DNA of 64,000 nucleotides from Candidatus Gastranaerophilales bacterium. GTDB lineage: Bacteria; Cyanobacteriota; Vampirovibrionia; Gastranaerophilales; Gastranaerophilaceae. Both the position numbers and the translations under genes were made by a program. The DNA lies in the NCBI GenBank assembly GCA_944324365.1, contig CALUWA010000006.1, positions 1,113 to 65,112 on the forward strand, read 5' to 3'. The notes below the pieces were generated by a model that had not been told where the DNA came from, searched no databases, and saw nothing but the letters and a program-made list of their open reading frames with translations. Each line of letters starts with the position of its first letter. Within the stretch, counting starts at the first letter, position 1. Shown piece after piece: positions 3,504-62,392 of the stretch.

Positions 3504-3521
3504 TTAATGTAAATAATAAGA

Positions 3522-3555
3522 AAAACCGCTCCGTATTCGGGGCGGTTTTCTTTTT
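3522..3555. terminator. bidirectional rho-independent terminator
   Basis: AAAACCGC-loop-GCGGTTTT hairpin followed by a T run, between convergent adhE and pilin-like A. Confidence 0.6.
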
Positions 3556-3562
3556 ACGGATA

Positions 3563-4720
3563 TTATTTCCAAGGATAGTCGTCTTTGAATGTCCAGCCGT
3601 CACCGGTGAATATTAGGAAACATAATGTAGGAAAGCCTCCGCCATAACTGGACTCTTTGCACATCTCTATAATATCATTTCTTGAAGATATATACATTCT
3701 TGGTAATCTCGGAATCTCAAATTTGCGATTTCCGGTGTTAAATACTGTGGCAATGTCAAAGACGTCACGGCCTACAATATTTGGGGCTTTTTGGCAATTA
3801 ACATCGGTTGTAAATGTTGCAAATTGGTTATTAGACCATAAAGTGATACAAGAGCCGTCTGCCAGTCTAAAGAATGCTCCTCTGGTAATTGAGCCGTCAT
3901 GAAAATATGCATCTTGCCCGTTAAAATTATATGCATGGTATGTATCTGTAAATTTATGAGCTCTGGCTCCGGATGTTCTCAGATACGGCATATAATATTT
4001 TTCTACAAATTCTGTTTGTGTAATTTTGGCCGGTATAGATTCGCCTGTATCCGGATCTGATGATGATATAGGCATATCCCAATATTCCATATCTCCGAAA
4101 TCTTTTACTGCCATTAAATGTGCGTTATATAAAAGAGAATATGTTCTTTTAAGTTGAGTAGCGGTAACAATTTTCTGGTACTTTGCTATAAGCATTGGCA
4201 TTGTCATAGCAGCGACAATACCGATAATGCCAAGGGTAATAAGAACTTCCGCAAGTGTGAAGGCTGCTTTTTCTTTTAGATCGCGGACAGGCTTACGCCT
4301 TCCGCGATGACATGCGGCAGGCAAGATGTACCATAGTTTGTCATCGCGTACTTCGTTGTGCGATCTTTTCTTCTGGATTGCTTCGCTAACTATCGGATTA
4401 TTCGGGTTGTCGCCGGAGTGACGTCCGGCTCCAACTTGCGGGCTGGGGCACTTCGTGCCACGGCACCCTTCCGAAAATCCGACCTCGCAATGACGCCTAA
4501 TGTCATCCTGAACTTGTTTCAGGATCTTACTACCATCGCAATGTGACAATTTGCTTTGGATACTCTTTTCCCGGATTGCTTCACTTCGTTCGCAATGACG
4601 TATGGTGTCATCCTTACAAAGCGAACCGCTGGTTACATTGTCATCCTGAGCGATAGCGAAGGATCTCTTATTTAATGAGATTCTTCGGGCTAAAGCCCTC
4701 AGAATGACAAAAGGCGTCAT
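3563..4720 (-). CDS. type IV pilin-like protein A (prepilin-type N-terminal methylation motif) with repeat-built extended leader
   Basis: KAA|FTLAEVLITLGIIGIVAAMTMP motif (F codon 4261-4259) followed by a 232-aa mature domain ending GDGWTFKDDYPWK; paralog of C. The N-terminal ~153 aa of the track ORF is a translation of palindromic repeats. The frame stays open upstream as far as the G tract at 4819-4830. True initiation is uncertain. Confidence 0.75.
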   Translation of the reverse strand: MTPFVILRALARRISLNKRSFAIAQDDNVTSGSLCKDDTIRHCERSEAIREKSIQSKLSHCDGSKILKQVQDDIRRHCEVGFSEGCRGTKCPSPQVGAGRHSGDNPNNPIVSEAIQKKRSHNEVRDDKLWYILPAACHRGRRKPVRDLKEKAAFTLAEVLITLGIIGIVAAMTMPMLIAKYQKIVTATQLKRTYSLLYNAHLMAVKDFGDMEYWDMPISSSDPDTGESIPAKITQTEFVEKYYMPYLRTSGARAHKFTDTYHAYNFNGQDAYFHDGSITRGAFFRLADGSCITLWSNNQFATFTTDVNCQKAPNIVGRDVFDIATVFNTGNRKFEIPRLPRMYISSRNDIIEMCKESSYGGGFPTLCFLIFTGDGWTFKDDYPWK

Positions 4721-4760
4721 TGCGAAACGCGAAGCGTTGAAGCAATCCAGAAAATTGCAA
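4270..4760. repeat. cluster of GC-rich GTCAT...ATGAC palindromic repeat modules inside the leader region of pilin-like A
   Basis: Modules seen: ATCGCGGA-N13-TCCGCGAT (4280-4308); GTCATCCTGAAC-TTG-TTTCAGGATC (4502-4526); GGATTGCTTC...GCAATGAC (~4573-4599); a 69-nt hairpin GTCATCCTGAGCG...CCCTCAGAATGAC (4640-4708); GTCATTGCGAAACGCGAAGCGTTGAAGCAATCC (~4716-4748). Homologous modules occur at 55562-55632 and 61012-61640. Confidence 0.85.
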
Positions 4761-4818
4761 TACCGGGTTTTAAAAGTGTCTAAAAGGCTGAAACTATCTC
4801 CAAAAGCGGAGAGTCTAG

Positions 4819-4830
4819 CCCCACCCCCCC
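4819..4830 (-). repeat. interrupted homopolymer (G7-T-G4 on coding strand) after the upstream ATG of pilin-like A
   Basis: Plus strand reads CCCC-A-CCCCCCC. It sits 14 codons after ATG 4871-4869 (SD GGAGG 4885-4881). As assembled, the frame stops at TAG 4817-4815. Confidence 0.9.
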
Positions 4831-4907
4831 TGGAGAATATAGGTATAATCAGTGTTTTCAGATTTTAACATTTGATATATCCTCCATAAATTCAAGTATC
4901 TGTTAAT

Positions 4908-4936
4908 ATTTTAACGTGTGTTTCTACATTTTTCAA
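4908..4936 (-). promoter_or_regulatory. sigma70-type promoter of pilin-like locus A
   Basis: Minus strand TTGAAA (4936-4931), 17-nt spacer, TAAAAT (4913-4908), about 35 nt upstream of ATG 4871. Near-identical module at locus C. Confidence 0.6.
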
Positions 4937-5029
4937 TATTAGATTTTTAATTAGCTCTCCAGATGTGTAATTGTATTTATAAAGTTTTGGTTTATGATAA
5001 TATTGTTTTTAAGATAAGGGAGAAATTTT

Positions 5030-5422
5030 ATGAAAAAAAATATTATCATAGTTTTGCTTGTATTGATTTTGCCGATTTTGGCATATATGTTCTTAAGTGC
5101 CGGGTCTGGCAGTGACATGGGGAGTGTAGATGCAAAAACTACAAAACCGCAGATTATAAAATTTACTTCTGCGATGTGTTTAGATTGCCAGACTATGAAT
5201 AAAATAATGAAAGAAATTTATCCGCAGTATCAGGATAGAATTGCCCTAACGGAAATCCATGTTCAGGATAATAAGCCGGAAACTCAGGATTGGATAAAAA
5301 AATACAATGTAACGCTTGTCCCTACGATTATTCTGATGAATTCACAAGGACAGCAGGTGCGTCGTATTGAAGGGGCTGTTGACAGAAATGTTTTTGAAGG
5401 ATACTTAAAGGAGCTTAAGTAA
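5030..5422 (+). CDS. thioredoxin-fold protein (TlpA/ResA-like), membrane-anchored
   Basis: N-terminal hydrophobic anchor and a CLDC (CxxC) motif in a thioredoxin-like context. Translationally coupled to ccdA. Confidence 0.75.
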   Translation: MKKNIIIVLLVLILPILAYMFLSAGSGSDMGSVDAKTTKPQIIKFTSAMCLDCQTMNKIMKEIYPQYQDRIALTEIHVQDNKPETQDWIKKYNVTLVPTIILMNSQGQQVRRIEGAVDRNVFEGYLKELK

Positions 5423-10297: not shown

Positions 10298-11278
10298 TTG
10301 GTGTTTATGCTGATTTTAATTTTATTGATTGCGGTCGTAATTTATGTATTTAAGGGTATAATCATTGTTCAGCAGCAGCAGGAAGTGATTATTGAGCGTA
10401 TGGGACGTTATGAAAGAACACTTACTGCAGGGCTGAATTTCATTTTTCCTATTTTGGAAGCACCGCGTGGTATTTTGACAAAGGTTAGCCAAAGAGGTTT
10501 TGACGGGCAGACATATTATTTGTTAAAACAGGCAGATAGGATTGATAAACGTGAGCAGATGTATGATTTTCCTCGTCAGAATGTAATTACGGAAGATAAC
10601 GTTTCGATTACTATTAATGCGTTAATTTATTTCCAAATTATTGACTCAAAAAGTGCGGTATATGAGATCGCGAATTTGCCGGAAGCTATTGAAAAGCTTA
10701 CCCAGACAAATTTAAGAAACCTTGTAGGTCAAATGGATTTGCAAAAAACATTGACTTCCCGTAATACGATTAATACGGAACTTCGCACAATTCTTGATGA
10801 AGCAACAAACAAATGGGGTGTAAAAGTTAACCGTGTAGAAATTCAAGATATTTTCCCTCCTGCTGATATCCAAGCTTCAATGGATAAATTGATGAAAGCA
10901 GACAGAGAAAAAACCGCAACAATTACGGAAGCTGAAGGTTTGAAAGAAGCCGCAATAAGAAAAGCAGAAGGTGAAAAAGAAGCTGCTATTCGTTCTGCAG
11001 AAGGCGAAAAGCAGGCAGAAATTCTGCGAGCCGAAGGTGTTGCTCAAGCTCGTATTATTGAAGCCGAAGCGGAAAAAGAAGCTATTAATAAAATTATTGA
11101 GGCTTTTGCGGATAAAGGACAGCCTGATAAATACCTGATTGCAATGAAATATCTCGAAACTCTTGGTGATATCTCAAAAGGCCAGAATAACAAAGTTGTT
11201 TATATGCCTTACGAAGCGTCAGGAATTCTGGCTTCAGTTGATGGTATCAAGCAAATGTTTGATAAACCGGCAAAATAA
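10298..11278 (+). CDS. SPFH/band-7 (stomatin-like) protein
   Basis: N-terminal TM segment, SPFH core (IIVQQQQEVIIERMGRY...DNVSITINALIYFQI...) and a C-terminal AEGEKEAAIR coiled-coil repeat region. The start could instead be ATG 10307. Confidence 0.88.
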   Translation: MVFMLILILLIAVVIYVFKGIIIVQQQQEVIIERMGRYERTLTAGLNFIFPILEAPRGILTKVSQRGFDGQTYYLLKQADRIDKREQMYDFPRQNVITEDNVSITINALIYFQIIDSKSAVYEIANLPEAIEKLTQTNLRNLVGQMDLQKTLTSRNTINTELRTILDEATNKWGVKVNRVEIQDIFPPADIQASMDKLMKADREKTATITEAEGLKEAAIRKAEGEKEAAIRSAEGEKQAEILRAEGVAQARIIEAEAEKEAINKIIEAFADKGQPDKYLIAMKYLETLGDISKGQNNKVVYMPYEASGILASVDGIKQMFDKPAK

Positions 11279-11353: not shown

Positions 11354-12172
11354 CTAATGATTGCAGGTTCCATTATACTCCCAAGCTCCATAACCAGATG
11401 AGACCCACCATCCCCCGGCATTGACACAGGACTCATAATCCGTACAAAACTGCGGGGTTTCAGCAGAGCATTCCTGAACATCCGCGAGTTCCTCAGAAAT
11501 ATCGTAAAGCTGTCCTCCTTCGCCTGCGAACCTGAATTTAAGAAGGTCTTTGGTCGCAATGTTAGGGTTATTTTTTCCGTTAACATCGACAACAACATCG
11601 AAGGACGAGAAGGTATCATCTGGAATAACGCCGAAAATCATGCCGTCACCTGTTGTGAACATATAGAGCACATCATCCCAATTAAACGGCGACGGAGAGG
11701 CTTTGCCTTCGACGGCGTACGAGTCCGGGAGTCTTTCAGGCTGGAGCCCGTTAACAGAGTCGTTGATAACATTAAATGCATCTTTGTGTTCCTTAGAAAC
11801 GCAGTCTTTGTCTTCCATTTCGTTACACTTAGCCAAGAAAGGAAGATTAGCAACGTTAAAGATTTCGTAGTGCGCCATCATTAATTTATATCCGTTAGCG
11901 ACAATATTTTTGGCTTTTTTAGCCTGAGCCTCGAGAATAAGCTCCTGGACTTTGGTTTGGAGCATAGGCATGGTAAGTGCAGCGACAACACCAATAACGC
12001 CGAGAGTAATCAAAACTTCGGCTAAAGTGAATGCAGTCACATTGTTACGAGGAGCGGCCCCGAAGATATCTTCATACGCAATGTTATCGGATACAGGGTG
12101 AAAACGCTTGCCTAGCTTATGATTAAGTCCCCCCCCCCCCCCGGAGAAATCAGCTATAATTGAGTTTTTCAT
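11354..12172 (-). CDS. type IV pilin-like protein B, G-tract in frame (ON)
   Basis: SD AAAGGAGGA then ATG 12172. Leader is MKNSIIADFS-GGGGG-LNHKLGKRFHPVSDNIAYEDIFGAAPRNNVTA (47 aa), followed by |FTLAEVLITLGVIGVVAALTMP (F codon 12031-12029). Mature domain contains VDVNGKNNPNIATKDLL, related to the DxN(C/G)xxxPNxxG(R/K)D motif of A, C and E. Confidence 0.8.
   Translation of the reverse strand: MKNSIIADFSGGGGGLNHKLGKRFHPVSDNIAYEDIFGAAPRNNVTAFTLAEVLITLGVIGVVAALTMPMLQTKVQELILEAQAKKAKNIVANGYKLMMAHYEIFNVANLPFLAKCNEMEDKDCVSKEHKDAFNVINDSVNGLQPERLPDSYAVEGKASPSPFNWDDVLYMFTTGDGMIFGVIPDDTFSSFDVVVDVNGKNNPNIATKDLLKFRFAGEGGQLYDISEELADVQECSAETPQFCTDYESCVNAGGWWVSSGYGAWEYNGTCNH
12129..12142 (-). repeat. homopolymeric G14 tract inside the leader codons of pilin-like B
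   Basis: 14 consecutive C on the plus strand, translated as GGGGG. The length keeps the upstream ATG in frame with the pilin domain. Confidence 0.95.
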
Positions 12173-12248: not shown

Positions 12249-12656
12249 TCAGTGTTTTACAGAACAGTCTTTGCATTCTCCGTAAAGTTCAAACTTATGA
12301 CCGGTGATATTAAAGCCTGTTTCATCTGCCAATTTATTTTCCAATTCTTCCAGCGGGCAGCAGTCTATCGGAATCATTTTATGGCATTTTGTACAAATCA
12401 TATAATGCTTATGGGTTTCACGTACAAGTTCATATCTGGCTCTGTTATCATTCAGTGTTGTAGCTTTATTTACAATACCGAGAGTTACAAGTTTTTCAAT
12501 AATTCTGTATATTGTGGACAGCGAAATTTTTGGGATTTCTTCTTTTGCCATATTATAAATTTCTTCTGTCGTTATTGGACAATTCTGATGTTCAAGAATT
12601 TGCAATACCTTATCTCTGTTTTTTGACGCTCTGCAACCTTCTAATTTCTGCCGCAT
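12249..12656 (-). CDS. Fur-family metalloregulator (Fur/Zur/PerR type not resolvable)
   Basis: Winged-helix N-terminus, HKHY motif and two CxxC pairs (CTKC..., CKDC). ATG 12656 preceded by GAAAGGG is preferred over the track's GTG 12671. Confidence 0.85.
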   Translation of the reverse strand: MRQKLEGCRASKNRDKVLQILEHQNCPITTEEIYNMAKEEIPKISLSTIYRIIEKLVTLGIVNKATTLNDNRARYELVRETHKHYMICTKCHKMIPIDCCPLEELENKLADETGFNITGHKFELYGECKDCSVKH

Positions 12657-12752
12657 AATTAACCCTTTCACGATTATTTTAACATAATTTTTAAAAAATA
12701 TAGCAAAATAACTTGATTATTTTTATTTAAGTTGTCTAATTATAAATGCAAA

Positions 12753-12835: not shown

Positions 12836-13525
12836 ACAGAGGATAACGTATCTATCACAATTAATGCTTTAATATATTTTCAGATAATTGATTCAAAAAG
12901 TGCGGTTTATGAGATTGCTAATTTGCCGGAAGCCATTGAAAAACTTACACAGACAAACTTAAGAAACCTTGTTGGTCAGATGGATTTGCAAAAGACACTG
13001 ACTTCACGTAACACAATTAATACGGAACTTCGTACAATCCTTGATGAAGCTACAAACAAATGGGGCGTAAAAGTCAACCGTGTAGAAATTCAAGATATTT
13101 TCCCTCCTGCTGATATCCAAGCTTCAATGGATAAATTGATGAAAGCAGACAGAGAAAAAACCGCAACAATTACGGAAGCTGAAGGTTTGAAAGAAGCCGC
13201 AATAAGAAAAGCAGAAGGTGAAAAAGAAGCTGCTATTCGTTCTGCAGAAGGCGAAAAGCAGGCTGAAATCTTAAGAGCGGAAGGTGTAGCGCAAGCTCGT
13301 ATTATCGAAGCTGAGGCAGAAAAAGAAGCTATTAACAGAATAATTGAAGCTTTCGCTGATAAAGGCCAGCCGGACAAATATTTGATTGCAATGAAATACC
13401 TTGAAACACTTGGTGATATTTCAAAGGGTCAAAATAACAAAGTTGTTTATATGCCGTATGAAGCATCCGGAATTTTGGCATCTGTCGACGGTATTAAGCA
13501 GATGTTTGATAAACCTGCAAAGTAG
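12836..13525 (+). pseudogene. 5'-truncated duplicate of the SPFH gene (last 229 codons)
   Basis: Collinear with 10589-11278 (offset 2247). The encoded peptide is identical except K->R. It lacks the N-terminal ~97 codons, TM segment, SD and ATG. Upstream it joins out of frame to a 26-codon ORF starting ATG 12792. Confidence 0.75.
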
Positions 13526-52148: not shown

Positions 52149-52371
52149 TATAAGATATTTCTCCCTGTCAGATAATCTTTATTTTACTACCTTTATAATA
52201 CTTCAAAACGGAGAAAAAAGCTATAAATTTGTAACAAAATTTTAATAAAAGGTAATAAAGAAAAGAGAGTATGGAACTCAAGCCATTAACTTACGTTTGT
52301 TGTAATACAAGAGTGCCGGAGTAATGCTTTCTTTTTTGCCTTCTTTTTTCTTTGAGCTAAAGAAAAAAGAA

Positions 52372-52516
52372 TGGTGGCCCCGGCGCGATTGTCTTGGTCG
52401 CTCGCGTGTAACGGCATTCCGTATTTTGCTAATGTGTTTTCAACACAATCGCAAAATAGCTCCAGCCTCAGCTCGCTCCCGCTCGACCGCAATAGGCGTT
52501 CTCATCGCTGCCGGGG
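52372..52516 (-). ncRNA. candidate structured small RNA, copy A (hypothetical)
   Basis: Extended -10 TGTTACAAT (52533-52525). 5' CCCCGGCAGCGAU pairs with 3' AUCGCGCCGGGG (12 bp, one bulge), followed by CCACCA and a T-rich tail. Internal 8-bp UAUUUUGC/GCAAAAUA stem encloses a GUGUU-GAA-AACAC hairpin. No family recognised. Confidence 0.3.
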
Positions 52517-52578
52517 TTATGTTTATTGTAACACAAAGCTTCCTTAGGAATTTTTTCCTTCAAATGTAAAAAAAAGAA

Positions 52579-52723
52579 TGGCGGCCCCGGCGCGATTGTC
52601 TTGGTCGCTCGCGTGTAACGGCATTCCGTATTTTGCTAATGTGTTTTCAACACAATCGCAAAATAGCTCCAGCCTCAGCTCGCTCCCGCTCGACCGCAAT
52701 AGGCGTTCTCATCGCTGCCGGGG
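52579..52723 (-). ncRNA. candidate structured small RNA, copy B (hypothetical)
   Basis: Same as copy A shifted by 207 nt. The 3' end reads CCGCCA. Confidence 0.3.
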
Positions 52724-52785
52724 TTATGTTTATTGTAACACAAAGCTTCCTTAGGAATTTTTTCCTTCAAATGTAAAAAAAAGAA

Positions 52786-52862
52786 TGGTGGCCCCGGCGC
52801 GATTCGAACGCGCGATCTTCGGTTTAGGAAACCGCTGCTCTATCCTGCTGAGCTACGAAGCC
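52786..52862 (-). tRNA. tRNA-Arg (anticodon CCT), CCA encoded
   Basis: Hand-folded cloverleaf: acceptor GGCUUCG/CGGGGCC, D arm GCUC/GAGC, anticodon loop UUCCUAA, T arm GCGCG-UUCGAAU-CGCGC, discriminator A plus CCA. Confidence 0.85.
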
Positions 52863-52868
52863 GTAAAA

Positions 52869-52942
52869 TATGCTTGACGGGAGTCAAACCCGTGACCTTC
52901 GGCTTCGGAGACCGACGCTCTATTCAACTGAGCTACAAGCAC
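52869..52942 (-). tRNA. tRNA-Arg (anticodon CCG), no encoded CCA
   Basis: Hand-folded cloverleaf: acceptor GUGCUUG/CAAGCAU (G1-U72), anticodon stem UCGGU/GCCGA, loop CUCCGAA, T arm ACGGG-UUUGACU-CCCGU. The unusual U56 is matched by a D loop (AGUUGAAUA) lacking the GG pair. Confidence 0.7.
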
Positions 52943-53005
52943 AAATTATAAAATAATTGTACTATAACCCGGTTTATTTTTCAATCATAATTTGCAATAA
53001 TCAGA

Positions 53006-53985: not shown

Positions 53986-54870
53986 ATGGAAAAAAATATA
54001 AATATAAGAACATTTGAAGATTTGTACAACGCTTGCGAAAAATATGAAAAGACTATTTACGAAATTTCACAAGAGCGTGAGGCTGAACTTGCGGAGGTAT
54101 CAATTCCGGAAGTCAGAATAGAGGTTAAGCGCAGTATTGACGCTATGCGCGAGGCTATTCAGAACGGTTTGCATTCCGATAAAATGTCAGTGAGCGGGAT
54201 GTGCGGAGATGACTGCGTACGGCTTCAAAAGGGTTTTGAAAGAAAGCATGCACTATTCGGAAAGTTGTATGAAAAAATTGTGACATACGCGCTTGCAACA
54301 TCTGAGGAAAATTTAAGGATGGGCAAAATTGTTGCGTGTCCGACAGCGGGTTCTTGCGCTATTGTGCCGTCTGTATTGGTTGCGGTAAGTGATAGCCTTG
54401 GGATAAGCGAAAAAGAACAGATTGATGCTCTAATTACGGCCGGTGAAGTCGGAAGGATTATTTCAAACAAGGTTCAATTGGCCGGTGCTGTTGCCGGGTG
54501 TCAGGCAGAATGCGGGGTTGCATCAGCGATGAGTGCCGCTGCATTAACCCAAATGAGGGGCGGAAATGTTAAACAAATTCTCAATGCGGTAGCTCTTGCG
54601 ATGAAGAATTTGTTAGGTCTTACGTGCGATCCTGTATGCGGGCTTGTTGAAATCCCTTGCGTAAAACGTAATCCGTTCCTTGCAATTCATGCGGTCACGG
54701 CATCAGAAATGGCTTTGGCTGGTATAGTTTCTAAAATTCCTCTTGATGAAATTATTGACGCGATGGAACAAACCGGGAAACTTATGTCGCCGATGTTAAA
54801 GGAAAGTTCGGAAGCCGGACTTGCCAAAACCAAGACTGCAATTGAACTTGAGCATAAGCTTGGAATGTAA
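53986..54870 (+). CDS. sdaAA: L-serine dehydratase, iron-sulfur-dependent, alpha subunit
   Basis: Conserved Cys ligand regions (ACPTAGSCAIVP, GCQAECGVASAM, CDPV...EIPCVKRN). Confidence 0.9.
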   Translation: MEKNINIRTFEDLYNACEKYEKTIYEISQEREAELAEVSIPEVRIEVKRSIDAMREAIQNGLHSDKMSVSGMCGDDCVRLQKGFERKHALFGKLYEKIVTYALATSEENLRMGKIVACPTAGSCAIVPSVLVAVSDSLGISEKEQIDALITAGEVGRIISNKVQLAGAVAGCQAECGVASAMSAAALTQMRGGNVKQILNAVALAMKNLLGLTCDPVCGLVEIPCVKRNPFLAIHAVTASEMALAGIVSKIPLDEIIDAMEQTGKLMSPMLKESSEAGLAKTKTAIELEHKLGM

Positions 54871-54874
54871 ATTG

Positions 54875-55702
54875 TTACTTCCACGGATAATCGTCTTTGA
54901 TTTGCCAGCCATCGTAAACTATTATCGCAAAACAAGCTGCTTGTTTGCCTCCATTGTATGTGTGTGTTTTGCAGCCGGAGTTGTTCATTATTTGTTCTCT
55001 AGGAAATGATTTAAACGCATCAAGTCCTGCAATAAATGGTTTTTTGTTGTTCATGTAATATAATTCAAAAATATCAAAAATATCCCTGCCGTATATATTT
55101 GGGCCTTTTTCACAATTTAAATCTGTCGTTAATACAACATACTGATTATTAGACCACAGTGTAAGACAAGAGCCATCGGACATTCTGAAGGAGCTGCCTC
55201 TGCCATGAACATTATCGTATTGAATATCTTGTCCGTTAAAATTGTATGCTTTGTATAATCCGGATTTCTTTTTCTGATGCTGCAGGTACGGCAGATAATA
55301 TCTTTCAAGAAATTCATCATTAGTTATACTTCTTTGGTTATTTTCATCAGTAATCGGGTAGTCCCAGTATATTGAATCCCCGTAATCATTAACCGCCATC
55401 TGGTAAGCATTAGAAAGGAGTGAATAAGTTCTTTTAAGCTGGGTAACAGTCACGAGTTTTTGGTACTTTGCAATTAACTGCGGCAAAGTCATTGCCGCGA
55501 TAATTCCGATTATGCCGAGGGTAATAAGGACTTCCGCTAACGTGAATGCTGCTTTCTTTTTGTCATCCTGAGGATGAAATCCGAAGGATCTCTTGCTTAA
55601 TGAGATTCTTCGGGCTTTGCCCTCAGAATGACGATTGGTGTTCTTCTTACAAAGGAAGCCGCCAATAATCCAAGAAGCATTGTAATGTCGTACCTCAGGC
55701 AC
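54875..55702 (-). CDS. type IV pilin-like protein C, upstream start out of frame (OFF as assembled)
   Basis: KKKAA|FTLAEVLITLGIIGIIAAMTLP (F codon 55546-55544). The mature domain is a paralog of A and ends YDGWQIKDDYPWK. The track start is a GTG without an SD. The frame is open upstream to the G12 tract. Confidence 0.78.
   Translation of the reverse strand: MPEVRHYNASWIIGGFLCKKNTNRHSEGKARRISLSKRSFGFHPQDDKKKAAFTLAEVLITLGIIGIIAAMTLPQLIAKYQKLVTVTQLKRTYSLLSNAYQMAVNDYGDSIYWDYPITDENNQRSITNDEFLERYYLPYLQHQKKKSGLYKAYNFNGQDIQYDNVHGRGSSFRMSDGSCLTLWSNNQYVVLTTDLNCEKGPNIYGRDIFDIFELYYMNNKKPFIAGLDAFKSFPREQIMNNSGCKTHTYNGGKQAACFAIIVYDGWQIKDDYPWK
55562..55632. repeat. 71-nt GTCATCCTGAGG...CCTCAGAATGAC palindromic module inside the leader of pilin-like C
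   Basis: Imperfect long hairpin. Same module as 4640-4708 and 61044-61111. Translated in the pilin frame as HSEGKARRISLSKRSFGFHPQDD. Confidence 0.85.
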
Positions 55703-55788
55703 TCGGGCTTCGCCATCAGAATGACGACATAGCGCGGACTTTAACCTGTCTAAAAGGCTGGAACTTTCTCCAAAAGCGGAGAGCCTAG

Positions 55789-55800
55789 CCCCCCCCCCCC
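55789..55800 (-). repeat. homopolymeric G12 tract after the upstream ATG of pilin-like C
   Basis: 12 consecutive C on the plus strand, starting 14 codons after ATG 55841-55839 (SD GGAGG 55855-55851). The assembled phase terminates at TAG 55787-55785. Confidence 0.95.
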
Positions 55801-55877
55801 TGGAGAATACCGGTATAATCAGTGTTTTCAGATTTCAACATTTCGTATATCCTCCATAATTTCAAGCTTCTGTTAGT

Positions 55878-55906
55878 ATTATAACGTATTTTTTGATATA
55901 TTTCAA
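55878..55906 (-). promoter_or_regulatory. sigma70-type promoter of pilin-like locus C
   Basis: Minus strand TTGAAA (55906-55901), 17-nt spacer, TATAAT (55883-55878). Confidence 0.65.
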
Positions 55907-55917
55907 ATATCAAAGTG

Positions 55918-57360
55918 TTACTGATTGTTCTGCTGCTGTTGTTCTTTTTCCTGCTGTTTTTGAAGTTTTGCGGCTTCTTTTGCCTTTTTGGCTTCTTCAC
56001 GCTGCTGTGCCTTTTTAGCTTTAGCCTCTTGCTGTGCTCGTTTCCTTTGCGCTTCAAGTTGGCGTTTCTCATCTAGTTGTTCTTGCAGGTCGTTATACTT
56101 TTCAACATTTTCATTATTAACCGTAGAACCTTCAAGGCTGTTTCTTAGCTTATAATCCTCTTTTTCACGTTTGAATTGTTCATCTACGGCCTGTAGTTTT
56201 TCTTTCCGTTCTTGTTTCAATTGTTTTACGATAGCTTTATCTTTAGCCTTTTCTCGTTTTGCCTCATCTTTGGCATATTTTTTTTCGGCTTTTTCTTGTG
56301 TTTTTGCAAGTGTATTCCTTACTACTCCATCCTGCACGATTTTAAACCCGTTTGAGGCAACTTCTATACTTCCGTTTTGCAAGGAAATTAATCTTGATTG
56401 TTCGCCTTTTGTATCAATTGTCCAAACCCCGAGAAATATCGGAGTATCGCCCGTATATGCATAAGCTGTTGCTAAAATTCTGTCCGGATTGCCTTTGCTG
56501 AAACCAAGCGGATACAAGTCCCAGCGTTTATCCGTAAGATTTAATCCTTTATATTCTTGCCAGAAATATTCAATCGCGTATCGCAGTTCAACAAGGTCAT
56601 AGGAAGTATGAGTTGTAAAGTCATACACAATTGCTCTGGTTTGCCAGATGCCATCTTCCGAACTGCCTATTTTTTCTTTTACTAACAATTTTTTGCTGTC
56701 TGCTGAAAAATCTATAGGGGTTAAGGTTCTGAATGCCGTGCTGTTTTTGACTTCTTTATCTGTTGAAAGAATTGGCTCCGGATACCTGTTTGCGATATTT
56801 GCTTTCAATATTTTGTTAACTGCGCTGTCGTTATCGCGAAGTGCAATCATAAATAAGTCGCATGTTACACTTTCCGATACCGGATAGTAGTATACGGCCG
56901 GATAAACCATTATGGAAAAATCCGGTGCCGTAATTCCCGGCAAATTTAGTTGGCGGGTTTTATATAAATCTCTGCTGATTGTAAGATTAGGACTTCCCGG
57001 CGGGTCGTTGTATCTTGCAAGTTTATATGTAGGCTGTGGTACGTATTGCATATCGTAAGGCTTTTCGACCTGTGGAATCCCATAATCAATAACGGCTTTA
57101 TCTTTTGGCTGGGATAACATTTCATATTCTTCTACAGTCATAAAGCCGGACGGATTTCTGTCCATAATTTTTCTTCCGTATTCTTCTTTAATACGTTCTT
57201 TTTCAACACGCTTTAAATATTCGGCCTCAATTGTGGCCTGGTCTTTCTTAAAGTCGACGCTGTTTTGAATATTGGTTTTAATTCTGTCCCAGTCAACTTC
57301 TGCCGACACGGAATTTATTGTTAATATTACGGCTGAAAGCAGCAATAATAACTTTCGCAT
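55918..57360 (-). CDS. secreted hypothetical protein with K/E/Q-rich coiled-coil C-terminus
   Basis: Signal peptide MRKLLLLLSAVILTINSVSA. The C-terminal ~130 aa are highly charged and low-complexity. Confidence 0.6.
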   Translation of the reverse strand: MRKLLLLLSAVILTINSVSAEVDWDRIKTNIQNSVDFKKDQATIEAEYLKRVEKERIKEEYGRKIMDRNPSGFMTVEEYEMLSQPKDKAVIDYGIPQVEKPYDMQYVPQPTYKLARYNDPPGSPNLTISRDLYKTRQLNLPGITAPDFSIMVYPAVYYYPVSESVTCDLFMIALRDNDSAVNKILKANIANRYPEPILSTDKEVKNSTAFRTLTPIDFSADSKKLLVKEKIGSSEDGIWQTRAIVYDFTTHTSYDLVELRYAIEYFWQEYKGLNLTDKRWDLYPLGFSKGNPDRILATAYAYTGDTPIFLGVWTIDTKGEQSRLISLQNGSIEVASNGFKIVQDGVVRNTLAKTQEKAEKKYAKDEAKREKAKDKAIVKQLKQERKEKLQAVDEQFKREKEDYKLRNSLEGSTVNNENVEKYNDLQEQLDEKRQLEAQRKRAQQEAKAKKAQQREEAKKAKEAAKLQKQQEKEQQQQNNQ

Positions 57361-60598: not shown

Positions 60599-61266
60599 AG
60601 TTTAATTTTAACAATACTGCGGCTAAAGTGCAAGTTTTATATTTAGTGCCTGAGGTACGATACTATAACGCTTCTTGGATTATTGGCGGCTCGACCGGCT
60701 CAACGCAGCTCTCGCCTGGACGAGTTTCGCTGCGCTCACTCTTGCCAAAATCTGCTTCGCTGTGCGAGACGCACTATTAGTAGTATTTATTGTTCATTTT
60801 CTCTTTTTTATTGCGAAGAAAAAAGCGGATTGTGAGCGTAGAGTGAAGAGCGTTGCCATAGGGCAATGCTCTGGAACTCGTAATACGCGAACAACCAAGC
60901 AGAGAAAACGAACCAAAAGAGAAAAACACGCAATCGTTTTTTGCGCTGCCTGCGGCATCGCTTTGACCGAATGGATATACGTTCCGTTTGCTTCGCAAAC
61001 GAAATCGTTAAGCGCTGCTAAGGACAACGCAGCGCAATAAATCGTCATTCAGAGGGCGAAGCCCGAAGAATCTCCTTAAATGAGAGATCCTTCGCTAACG
61101 CTCAGGATGACACTAAGAGTCATTGCGAGGAGCTTTGCGACGAAGCAATCCACTAGGTTAAAGCGTATTCTCCTGGATTGCTTCGCTAGCGCTCGCAATG
61201 ACGTAAAAAGTGCTGCGTTGTCCTTAGCAGCGCAGCGTCATGTAAAAGAGGACTGTGGCCTCCCCC

Positions 61267-61295
61267 TTGCAAAATTTGTGAACGTCGTTTATACT
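61267..61295 (+). promoter_or_regulatory. sigma70-type promoter of pilin-like locus D
   Basis: TTGCAA (61267-61272), 17-nt spacer, TATACT (61290-61295), followed by AAAAGGAGGA and ATG 61318. Confidence 0.55.
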
Positions 61296-61348
61296 AATAG
61301 AAAAGGAGGATATAGATATGCAAAAGTCAAGTATAGCGCGGAAACACC

Positions 61349-61358
61349 GGGAGGGGGG
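61349..61358 (+). repeat. interrupted G tract (G3-A-G6) after the upstream ATG of pilin-like D
   Basis: Located 10 codons after ATG 61318. The assembled frame stops at TAA 61369-61371. Confidence 0.9.
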
Positions 61359-61603
61359 TATCTGCATCTAAGTCAGGGCAAGGGTTTGTGCCCGTTTGCC
61401 ATTGCGGCGAGCCTGAGGCTCTACACTATGACGCTGCGCTTCGTGGAATGCTACAATTAATCCAAGAGAAGAGATCGCGGACAAACCTTTGGTTTTCCGC
61501 GATGACATGTGGCTGGCGGAAGGTTCCAAAACCTGTCATCACGCACTTGTTGCGCGATCTATGAATTGCTTCGTCGCAAGCTCCTCGCAATGACGAGAAA
61601 TAT

Positions 61604-62392
61604 TTGCTTAGCAACCCTTTACTGAAAATCCGACCTTGCAATGACAGGAAAAAGAGTTTCTTCGGATTTCATCCTCAGAATGACATAGCAAAGAAAGCGG
61701 CGTTTACGCTTGCGGAGGTGCTGATTACGCTTGGTATAATCGGTGTAATCGCAGCATTGACATTACCCGGACTGCTTGCAGAGTATTCAAAGGTTGTGGT
61801 TGAAACAAAATTAAAAAAATTCTATTCCCAGATAAATCAGGCAGTACAGTTATCAGAAGCAGAGTATGGGGATAGAGCATACTGGCATCTTGGCGTAAAT
61901 ACTCTGGAATTTGATGAGAATGGAAAACCTATTCCGGGTACATCTTCTGTTGAGCAATGGTTTATGAAGTATATAGCTTCTCATATGACAGTAATTAAAG
62001 TTGATTATGATGATAATGCCAGACCAACGTTTTATTTTAAAGATGGTACGGCCTTAAAGCAAATGAATGGTTCTATCCAATCTTCTCATGAGGATTGGAA
62101 TCAGGATTGGATGTTTTATACTTCAAATCCGGAAAAATGTGAAAAGTTATATGGTTCTGAATATAAAGCACGAGGTCGATGCAGTTTTGCATTTATGTAT
62201 TTGACTGTTAGCGATGATCCTGCCTATAAAAATTTGGTAGGTAAAGGATTTGAGCCTTATAAGTATCGTTGGGATGGAACTGTTCGCTATTTTAAGGAAA
62301 GATGTAAAACTCAGCCTGAATACTGCACAGCCTGGATTCATTTGAACGGGTGGAAAATTCCTGATGATTATCCGTTTAAGGTTTCTTATTAA
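61604..62392 (+). CDS. type IV pilin-like protein D (possibly silent or decayed expression site)
   Basis: AKKAA|FTLAEVLITLGIIGVIAALTLP. C-terminus NGWKIPDDYPFKVSY is related to A and C. The track start is a TTG without an SD. The pilin frame is open back to the G tract except for one TGA at 61562-61564. Confidence 0.7.
   Translation: MLSNPLLKIRPCNDRKKSFFGFHPQNDIAKKAAFTLAEVLITLGIIGVIAALTLPGLLAEYSKVVVETKLKKFYSQINQAVQLSEAEYGDRAYWHLGVNTLEFDENGKPIPGTSSVEQWFMKYIASHMTVIKVDYDDNARPTFYFKDGTALKQMNGSIQSSHEDWNQDWMFYTSNPEKCEKLYGSEYKARGRCSFAFMYLTVSDDPAYKNLVGKGFEPYKYRWDGTVRYFKERCKTQPEYCTAWIHLNGWKIPDDYPFKVSY

Follow-up and report, generated by a model that had tools for sequence, protein, structure and literature searches.

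Sequences of the repetitive extragenic palindromic (REP) type are imperfect palindromes of ~25 nucleotides (nt) that also occur as inverted doublets with a short spacer (REPINs), able to form one long hairpin; they are multi-copy, mostly extragenic, and without target-site duplications (PMC3116915; PMC3337134). REPINs and their REP-associated tyrosine transposases (RAYTs) are inherited vertically within lineages (bioRxiv 10.1101/2022.05.22.493013). Other palindromes reside within genes: the Rickettsia palindromic elements (RPEs; Ogata et al. 2000), which are ~100-150 bp long and occur in one genus, are inserted in frame in protein genes (PMC10969869). Repeat DNA is also found where a cleaved leader is encoded, as in Neisseria opa, in which CTCTT repeats lie in the leader-peptide-coding region (PMC3960869). 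The class III leaders of type IV pilins are hydrophilic, 6-26 amino acids (aa) long, and end in Gly at position -1; they remain cytoplasmic, and their cleavage takes place on that side (PMC4471445). Here, we studied a 64,000-nt stretch (hereafter the window) of a Candidatus Gastranaerophilales genome (GenBank assembly GCA_944324365.1, contig CALUWA010000006.1, positions 1,113 to 65,112), in which GC-rich hairpin modules lie between the poly-G tract and the mature domain of pilin-like genes. The reading we favor, at a probability of roughly 70%, is that these are REP/REPIN-like palindromes that accumulated in the translated, frame-kept, and cleaved leaders of phase-variable pilin-like genes in this Gastranaerophilales lineage.

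The window (GC ~37%) carries four pilin-like genes, A (3563-4871, minus strand), B (11354-12172, minus), C (54875-55841, minus), and D (61318-62392, plus), each with a match to PF07963 (N_methyl) or TIGR02532; A, C, and D also match DUF6613 (PF20318). They share a layout in which a sigma-70-like promoter, a strong Shine-Dalgarno (SD) sequence, and an ATG are followed ~10 codons in by a poly-G tract and, much further 3', by the prepilin core K-K-A-A/FTLAEVLITLGIIG, where the slash marks the predicted cleavage site and FTLAEVLITLGIIG is invariant in the family alignment. Like other N-terminal methylation motifs, the core has F at +1, E at +5, and ~20 hydrophobic residues. Between tract and core lie the modules of A (4270-4760), C (55562-55727), and D (61474-61685), bounded by GTCAT...ATGAC or GGATTGC...GCAATCC; with an additional array upstream of the D start codon, the modules around D extend over 60645-61685. 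When the four module regions were searched against the window by blastn-short, the only matches elsewhere were of 12-13 nt, as expected by chance. Module regions reach 48% GC, and their predicted RNA folding energy is -0.30 to -0.40 kcal/mol per nt, compared with about -0.19 for neighboring coding sequence, in line with the proposal of a first-pass annotation, made by a model from the sequence, that strong RNA hairpins separate the switch from the pilin domain. A gathering-score scan of the window with Rfam 15 passed two tRNAs and nothing at the modules. A known RNA family or riboswitch in the leader was also considered and rejected, as E-value scans of both module regions returned unrelated weak matches (best E 0.08-0.3).

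The poly-G tracts have the properties of contingency loci: lengths of G10-G14 that differ between alleles, and both ON and OFF alleles of homologous genes, ON meaning that the ATG is in frame with the pilin. Poly-G phase variation of pilC in Neisseria is said to have been described by Jonsson et al. in 1991. Reading tract lengths from consensus assemblies, we found 11 of the 12 loci with a placeable ATG to be OFF, B being the only one ON; at locus A the tract is G7TG4 in the window and G6 in the ortholog L111. Either OFF frame reaches a stop no more than 15 codons from the tract, ahead of the first module. There are two head types, MLKSENT..ILQGGG and MQKSSIA..GGG.

Evidence for translation of the arrays comes from the reading frame. 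From the poly-G tract to FTLAEV, the pilin frame contains no stop in 185 codons at locus A and none in 78 codons at locus C, compared with 3-16 stops in the two remaining sense frames and 2-8 in the antisense frames. By shuffling, the chance of a stop-free pilin frame is P = 1e-4 for A and 0.011 for C; the coding compatibility of these arrays is not due to chance. The array upstream of D (60645-61240), built of similar kinds of modules, has 4-15 stops in all six frames, and because it precedes the SD and ATG (61318) of that gene, it is not part of a leader.

The same pattern holds in more than 30 related loci. Across 15 loci from the window and sister metagenome-assembled genomes (MAGs), the open run 5' of FTLAEV is 46-201 codons in frame 0, reaching in each case to just past the poly-G tract, versus 1-16 in frames 1 and 2. 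For the 11 loci from sister Gastranaerophilales MAGs, the runs are 59-125 codons in the pilin frame versus 3-8 in the others, and all 11 end just past a G10-G12 tract. Eighty metagenome loci from more distant relatives (29-38% identity) keep the open-frame rule, with leaders of up to 184 codons. Complete ON open reading frames (ORFs) occur in 19 of 118 database homologs (e.g., P0005, P0024, P0075, and P0099), with an M-x(2-22)-GGG start and 16-185 aa to the motif. The ON allele P0005 reads MLKSENTNYTYILQGGGARLSAFG...RRISLNEGSFAYAQDD...KKKAAFTLAEV, the ON allele L112 was checked at the DNA level, and metagenomes contain full-length ON alleles of the form MLKSENT..GGG...modules...KKAAFTLAEV. Leaders with a common head differ in length by 27, 75, 99, and 153 nt, every one a multiple of three. 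As the first-pass annotation had anticipated, gene calls in public data include the peptides encoded by the modules as segments of proteins. We consider it most likely that the array is translated as a long leader. A self-splicing intron that would connect the remote ATG with the pilin was considered and rejected, the intervening DNA being a variable mosaic of short palindromes that is itself an open frame.

A further claim was that the modules are confined to pilin leaders and that this reflects a systematic link. Within the window, all module clusters lie in three pilin 5' regions, which make up ~20% of its non-ORF space (p ~0.01 for three clusters), a confinement that is only modestly significant. 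Confinement to leaders fails for the array ahead of the ATG of D, which holds half of the modules at that locus. The strict GTCAT-N-ATGAC hairpin pattern occurs three times in the window, with 0.3 expected, under a definition too narrow to serve as a full census. In a sister MAG, 10 of the 17 copies of a 70-nt module family lie in pilin leaders with an open frame, at least three lie elsewhere, and four are at contig ends. Long leaders across the family have higher GC (0.41 vs. 0.35), stronger predicted folding (-0.26 vs. -0.19 kcal/mol per nt), and a higher density of GTCAT/ATGAC (6.8 vs. 1.5 per kb) than adjacent coding sequence. The link between modules and leaders is real and strong, yet lineage-specific and not exclusive. 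As a general rule it is not supported: the 70-nt module is pan-bacterial and lies mostly between unrelated housekeeping genes with no pilin nearby.

The anatomy of the individual loci is as follows. Locus A, on the minus strand, has a promoter-like site TTGAAA-17-TAAAAT (4908-4936) and a head (4869-4885) comprising the SD GGAGGA (4880-4885) and an ATG (4871-4869) that begins MLKSENTDYTYILQGG...; its G7-T-G4 tract (4819-4830) leaves this ATG out of frame with the pilin. Downstream come M1 (4716-4748), a 33-nt hairpin GGATTGC...GCAATGAC that translates as DCFNASRFAMT; M2 (4640-4708), a 69-nt doublet of two inverted units (GTCATyCTGAG-minihairpin-GAAGrATCTC) that translates as VILRALARRISLNKRSFAIAQDD; M3 (4573-4599), 27 nt of the form GTCATTGCGA...GCAATCC, read as RHCERSEAI; M4 (4502-4526), the single hairpin unit GATCCTGAAACAAGTTCAGGATGAC, read as ILKQVQDD; M5 (4375-4494), a 120-nt composite with ends GTCATTGCGAGG / GCGAAGCAATCC; and M6 (4340-4365) with M7 (4280-4312), ATCGCG...CGCGAT hairpins that together (4280-4365) adjoin the cleavage site KEKAA/FTLAEV. 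The F codon of that site is 4261-4259, and the mature pilin-like domain, with the N_methyl motif and DUF6613, covers 3563-4261. Locus C, also on the minus strand, has the promoter-like site TTGAAA-17-TATAAT (55878-55906; 11/12 match) and a head at 55789-55855, with the SD at 55850-55855, the ATG at 55841-55839, and a G12 tract (55789-55800) in the OFF state. Its leader modules (55562-55727) consist of a half-module (55703-55727), a 47-nt unit (55657-55703) that is an inverted copy of 60645-60691, and a 71-nt doublet (55562-55632) abutting KKKAA/F; the mature domain is at 54875-55546.

Locus D lies on the plus strand. The array 5' of its start codon (60645-61240) includes a 70-nt doublet (61044-61111) and GTCATTGCGAGG...CTCGCAATGAC (61119-61202); a stretch of ~300 nt (60700-61000), located between locus D and the TPR gene, is strongly structured and is not built of short hairpin modules. 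The head (61306-61358) consists of an SD, an ATG at 61318-61320, and the degenerate tract GGGAGGGGGG at 61349-61358. Leader modules (61474-61685) end in a half-module (61652-61685) abutting AKKAA/F, and the mature domain (DUF6613, E=9e-16) is at 61703-62392. Three elements of the initial inventory were recovered across these loci: the ~70-nt module at 4640-4708, 55562-55632, and 61044-61111, in copies 89-94% alike; ATCGCGGA-N-TCCGCGATGACATG at 4280-4316 and 61474-61510; and half-modules abutting the cleavage site in C (55561-55594) and D (61652-61685). Locus B (11354-12172, minus) is in frame via a G14 tract (12130-12143) and has a 46-aa leader without modules. It is flanked on both sides, together with a small Fur-like ORF (12249-12671), by a direct duplication of ~690 nt (10589-11278 and 12836-13525; 90% identity, 2247-nt period) of the 3' part of a SPFH/band-7-like gene. 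Elsewhere in the window, three 207-nt tandem repeats (52344-52943) adjoin tRNA-Arg(CCT) and tRNA-Arg(CCG), each terminating in a GC-rich stretch that resembles a tRNA 3' end.

Orthologous leaders differ in module content. The ortholog L111 shares the gene order of locus A (thioredoxin, pilin, adhE) and is ~99% identical to it in head and proximal leader; ~390 nt of the central array have given way to ~340 nt of different sequence, with the frame kept open. The leader of L033, a 48%-identical homolog of B in a sister MAG, is filled with modules and at least 124 aa long. In the sister-species genome BRZ_QC__bin21, a GTDB species representative, the positional ortholog of A (L039) combines head and leader of the A type, a pilin domain that shares 80-90% identity with that of window locus C, and an A-type 3' flank (L039:1250-2420 compared with window 3520-5030 and 54830-55960). 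This mosaic indicates that cassettes were exchanged among paralogous loci. Because the interval of the crossover takes in the conserved FTLAEVLITLG codons as well as the 70-nt module, it does not single out the module as the point of exchange. Among five paralogs of one MAG (L001, L005, L007, L039, and L068), the cleavage-proximal 90 nt of the leader are 88-98% identical, spacers included, compared with 71-83% for the codons of the N-terminal helix and ~55% for the globular domains. Leaders are mosaics of common blocks, and leader segments have evidently been copied between paralogous loci in concerted evolution. In the more distant family members L114 and L115, the start is conventional, an SD of their own preceding MKKAFTLAEV or MKKYAFTLAEV. 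A long leader built of modules is thus a derived feature within the family, belonging to a sub-lineage. L114 also carries a separate SD-ATG-G11 mini-ORF (257-364) that ends just 5' of a terminator-like hairpin, with the pilin gene at 446-1144; from this arrangement, the poly-G head may have begun as, or may act as, a phase-variable upstream ORF (uORF) or attenuator.

Leaders of the window loci range from 46 to ~190 aa. The long leaders (n=64) are hydrophilic; their net charge averages +7.4, and in no case does a 19-aa hydropathy window exceed 1.6; as predicted polypeptides, the module-derived leaders fit the cytoplasmic, removable topology of class III. Residue -1 is Ala in 106 of the 118 homologs and not the canonical Gly, so that neither this position nor the leader length conforms to the short-leader definition (6-26 aa, Gly-1; PMC4471445). 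In a set of distant homologs (proteins P0054, P0064, P0068, P0098, and P0104; loci L125, L139, and L173), the sequence AAFTLAE-GATHVxxxxNxRR-AAFTLAEV doubles the cleavage motif around a ~20-aa insert. It looks as if another small element targets, or brings a copy of, the conserved FTLAE codons.

The 70-nt module has a distribution far wider than this gene family. An exact-pattern scan for its core, with taxonomy labels of MAGs taken as given, found it in at least 110 stretches from more than 15 phyla, mainly between unrelated ordinary genes. Besides Gastranaerophilales, the hosts include Omnitrophota, several phyla of the candidate phyla radiation (CPR), Thermodesulfobacteriota and 'Deltaproteobacteria', Alpha- and Gammaproteobacteria, Clostridia, Muribaculaceae, Planctomycetota, Verrucomicrobiota, Chloroflexota, Poribacteria, and Armatimonadota, with host genomes of 32-65% GC. 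No pilin motif was found near the module outside Gastranaerophilales. The module consists of a ~27-nt unit, a 7-11-nt loop, and an inverted unit, and this inverted doublet of hairpin units is the REPIN layout. Each unit is laid out as GTC-ATyCT-(GCGAAGC-type minihairpin)-AGrAT-CTC, and GCGAAGC was reportedly found by Hirao et al. to form a DNA minihairpin of unusual stability. The outer arms GTCATCCTGAG / CTCAGAATGAC, which lie outside the imposed search pattern, are more than 90% conserved. Each arm of the module holds a small inner hairpin, which occurs as GCGAAGC, GCCCGAAGGGC, or GGATGAAATCC on one arm and as GGCTTCGCC, GGCCTTCGGCC, or GGGCTAAAGCCC on the other; by eye, compensatory changes are seen in these two small inner hairpins only. 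RNAalifold on 45 cross-phylum copies detected no covariation in the outer and central stems, a neutral result for these stems because they are invariant, the central one being fixed by the search pattern.

As to how the module might spread, 70 of 81 copies have no flanking direct repeat and the rest have repeats of 1-3 nt, at chance level; with inverted termini and without target-site duplications, it does not match the definition of a miniature inverted-repeat transposable element (MITE) derived from a DDE transposon. A Pfam scan of 150 ORFs flanking modules gave 223 unrelated families and no Y1_Tnp or DDE transposase, a result that covers neighbors only, RAYTs being single-copy genes. Carriage by phages was rejected (0 matches in 2.9 million viral contigs). 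The module does occur in frame inside three genes of unrelated phyla: it is inserted in an RrnaAD/KsgA gene (L096:1698-2606) and an Aminotran_5 (NifS/IscS-type) gene (L056:3320-4462), in both of which a single Pfam match spans the insert, and in a methyltransferase gene (L018:3746-4681), which has separate methyltransferase matches on each side. Full-text literature searches with module peptides and DNA strings returned nothing relevant; the near-identity of this element across phyla was not found described in the papers searched, nor does it match an Rfam family.

In the reading that we favor, (T)GTCAT...ATGAC(A) hairpin units, whether alone or paired as inverted doublets and members of families that many bacterial phyla carry, would collect in the 5' part, transcribed as well as translated, of pilin-like genes whose plan is promoter, SD-ATG, phase-variable poly-G, 0 to ~10 modules, and a class III core K/R-K-A-A/FTLAEVLITLG. 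When tract length places the ATG in frame, ribosomes would read through the entire module array to the pilin, and because the ON reading needs the whole array, surviving insertions, deletions, and rearrangements would be those that keep the frame and add no stop. The 50-190-aa hydrophilic, positive extension would stay cytoplasmic and be removed with the leader by prepilin peptidase; being removed, it would have an almost unconstrained sequence and offer a tolerant site in a compact genome. Recombination among paralogous loci would then diversify and spread module content. The original idea of a safe harbor for REP/MITE-like elements is partly supported, by palindromes kept free of stops and frameshifts in a hydrophilic, charged leader; its MITE component lacks target-site duplications, and part of the accumulation is copying between paralogs.

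Several points weigh against this account. Translation, cleavage at A/F, and neutrality of the peptide are what we infer from the sequence, and with Ala at -1 and leaders far beyond described lengths, processing is unproven. With 11 of 12 assembled loci OFF, selection for the open frame must act via rare ON states. Modules also lie outside leaders, upstream of D and in the sister MAG, and given the high identity of leader segments among paralogs, many module copies are not independent insertions. The locus D leader contains one in-frame TGA at 61562-61564 (RDL-stop-IAS), at a codon that homologs P0030 and P0111 read as W (RDLWIAS), so that the claim of coding compatibility holds for A and C and not for D; this stop and the broken tract suggest that locus D is decaying.

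The strongest rival, to which we give slightly less than even odds, is that the concentration of modules in leaders is mainly a side effect of gene-family dynamics, leader segments with their modules being copied by duplication, gene conversion, and cassette exchange, possibly with the repeats supplying homology, instead of insertions being attracted or tolerated by each leader separately. The near-identical proximal leaders of the five paralogs against their divergent globular domains, the mosaic of common blocks, and L039, with an A-type head and leader joined to a C-type pilin domain and the 70-nt module within the crossover interval, speak for such copying. Copying leaves unexplained why the arrays are stop-free in the pilin frame alone; the crossover interval also holds the conserved FTLAEVLITLG codons, and module families differ between leaders. 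We think it rather unlikely that the hairpins were selected for a function in mRNA, whereby the untranslated OFF array would fold into very stable stems, hiding the ATGs within the ATGAC termini, and either prevent internal initiation or favor decay, while ribosomes on ON transcripts would unwind it. That proposal draws on the strong predicted folding of the leaders relative to adjacent coding sequence, on the termination of both OFF frames before the first module, and on in-frame ATGs such as that at 4720 inside predicted stems, but module number and identity vary freely among orthologs and paralogs, modules are dispensable to locus B and to many homologs, which work without them, and the same elements are found in ordinary intergenic DNA of other phyla.

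Two further models fit the data poorly. One, very improbable in our estimation, treats A, C, and D as decaying pseudogenes or silent cassettes in which repeats collect because selection is gone. All three are out of frame with their own ATG, 11 of the 12 loci are OFF, and in D the tract is degenerate and a nonsense codon interrupts the leader; yet the mature domains are intact ORFs with conserved motifs, each locus keeps its promoter, SD, ATG, and long G tract, no stop interrupts the leader frame of A, C, or any sister-MAG locus, and ON alleles of the same genes exist. The other, which we rate as the least probable of all, makes the array an untranslated 5' region, the pilin starting a few codons before FTLAEV at a near-cognate or unrecognized start and the ATG-poly-G ORF serving as a regulatory uORF. 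The distant relative L114 offers a precedent, its poly-G uORF ending before the terminator-like hairpin and its pilin having its own SD-ATG (MKKAFTLAEV), and some leaders have an in-frame ATG from an ATGAC terminus (MTNRKKKAAFTLAEV, P0010). A and C, however, have no ATG, GTG, TTG, or SD near the cleavage site, the open frame reaches back exactly to the poly-G in dozens of loci, ON alleles are single ORFs, and the indels are multiples of three. Returning to accumulation in translated leaders, two additions have some support and are not exclusive of it: the hairpins may tighten the OFF state, and the repeats may aid recombination between loci. A more ambitious synthesis strikes us as doubtful: that these are pilin-like proteins with by far the longest class III leaders known (to ~190 aa), built from a pan-bacterial, horizontally spread, ORF-compatible REPIN-like element whose hairpins silence OFF alleles and whose repeats are a portable homology arm that reshuffles promoter-and-switch heads and pilin cassettes.

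Compared with REPs and REPINs, the modules are alike in their imperfect ~25-nt palindromes, their inverted doublets with a short spacer that can form one long hairpin, their copy number (at least 17 of one family in one MAG), their mostly extragenic location, and the absence of target-site duplications. They differ in having GTCAT at the 5' end and termini (T)GTCAT / ATGAC(A) in place of the GTAG of classical REPs and in lying inside coding sequence, and the 70-nt module, nearly identical across phyla of widely different GC content, contrasts with the vertical inheritance of REPIN-RAYT systems. With RPEs they share short palindromes in frame that are translated as a tolerated extra peptide, as the 70-nt module does in the RrnaAD, Aminotran_5, and methyltransferase genes; this resemblance is a functional one, since organisms and unit sizes differ. 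The modules are 25-70 nt long and occur in more than 15 phyla, and here they form tandem arrays in a removable prepilin leader, 3' of a phase-variable tract. The Neisseria systems resemble these genes in placing repeat DNA in the 5' region for a cleaved leader, in slipped-strand ON/OFF switching, and in belonging to a recombining multigene surface family. There, the repeat is the switch and the signal peptide is a Sec signal of normal length, whereas here a poly-G switch is followed by hundreds of nucleotides of unrelated palindromes in a class III leader. That leader resembles those of described type IV pilins in its hydrophilicity, the F-T-L-x-E motif, and the ~20 hydrophobic residues, and differs in its length (to ~190 vs. 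6-26 aa) and in the Ala at -1 (90% of the family, vs. Gly). The ingredients are known singly: REP/REPIN-like palindromes, in-frame palindromic insertions, and repeat switches in leader-coding regions. We did not find the combination described, tandem palindrome arrays held to one frame in a prepilin leader of 50-190 aa; a review of MITEs covers intragenic enterobacterial repetitive intergenic consensus (ERIC) sequences and RPEs and mentions neither pilin nor leader (PMC10969869). What we describe places a known phenomenon, the tolerance of mobile palindromes within coding sequence, in a new setting.

If this account is true, the known limits of prepilin leaders would be extended about sevenfold, and it would show that, in compact genomes, selfish palindromic DNA can land in a cleaved, cytoplasm-facing leader that tolerates it. 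It would account for thousands of database 'proteins' of gut Melainabacteria that begin with odd repeat-derived peptides, with a bearing on start-site annotation. The analysis also brings to light a 70-nt palindrome that is conserved nearly base for base over more than 15 phyla and is able to sit in frame in housekeeping genes. For this uncultured gut lineage, the poly-G switch, the structured leader, and cassette exchange together would provide a testable system of surface variation.

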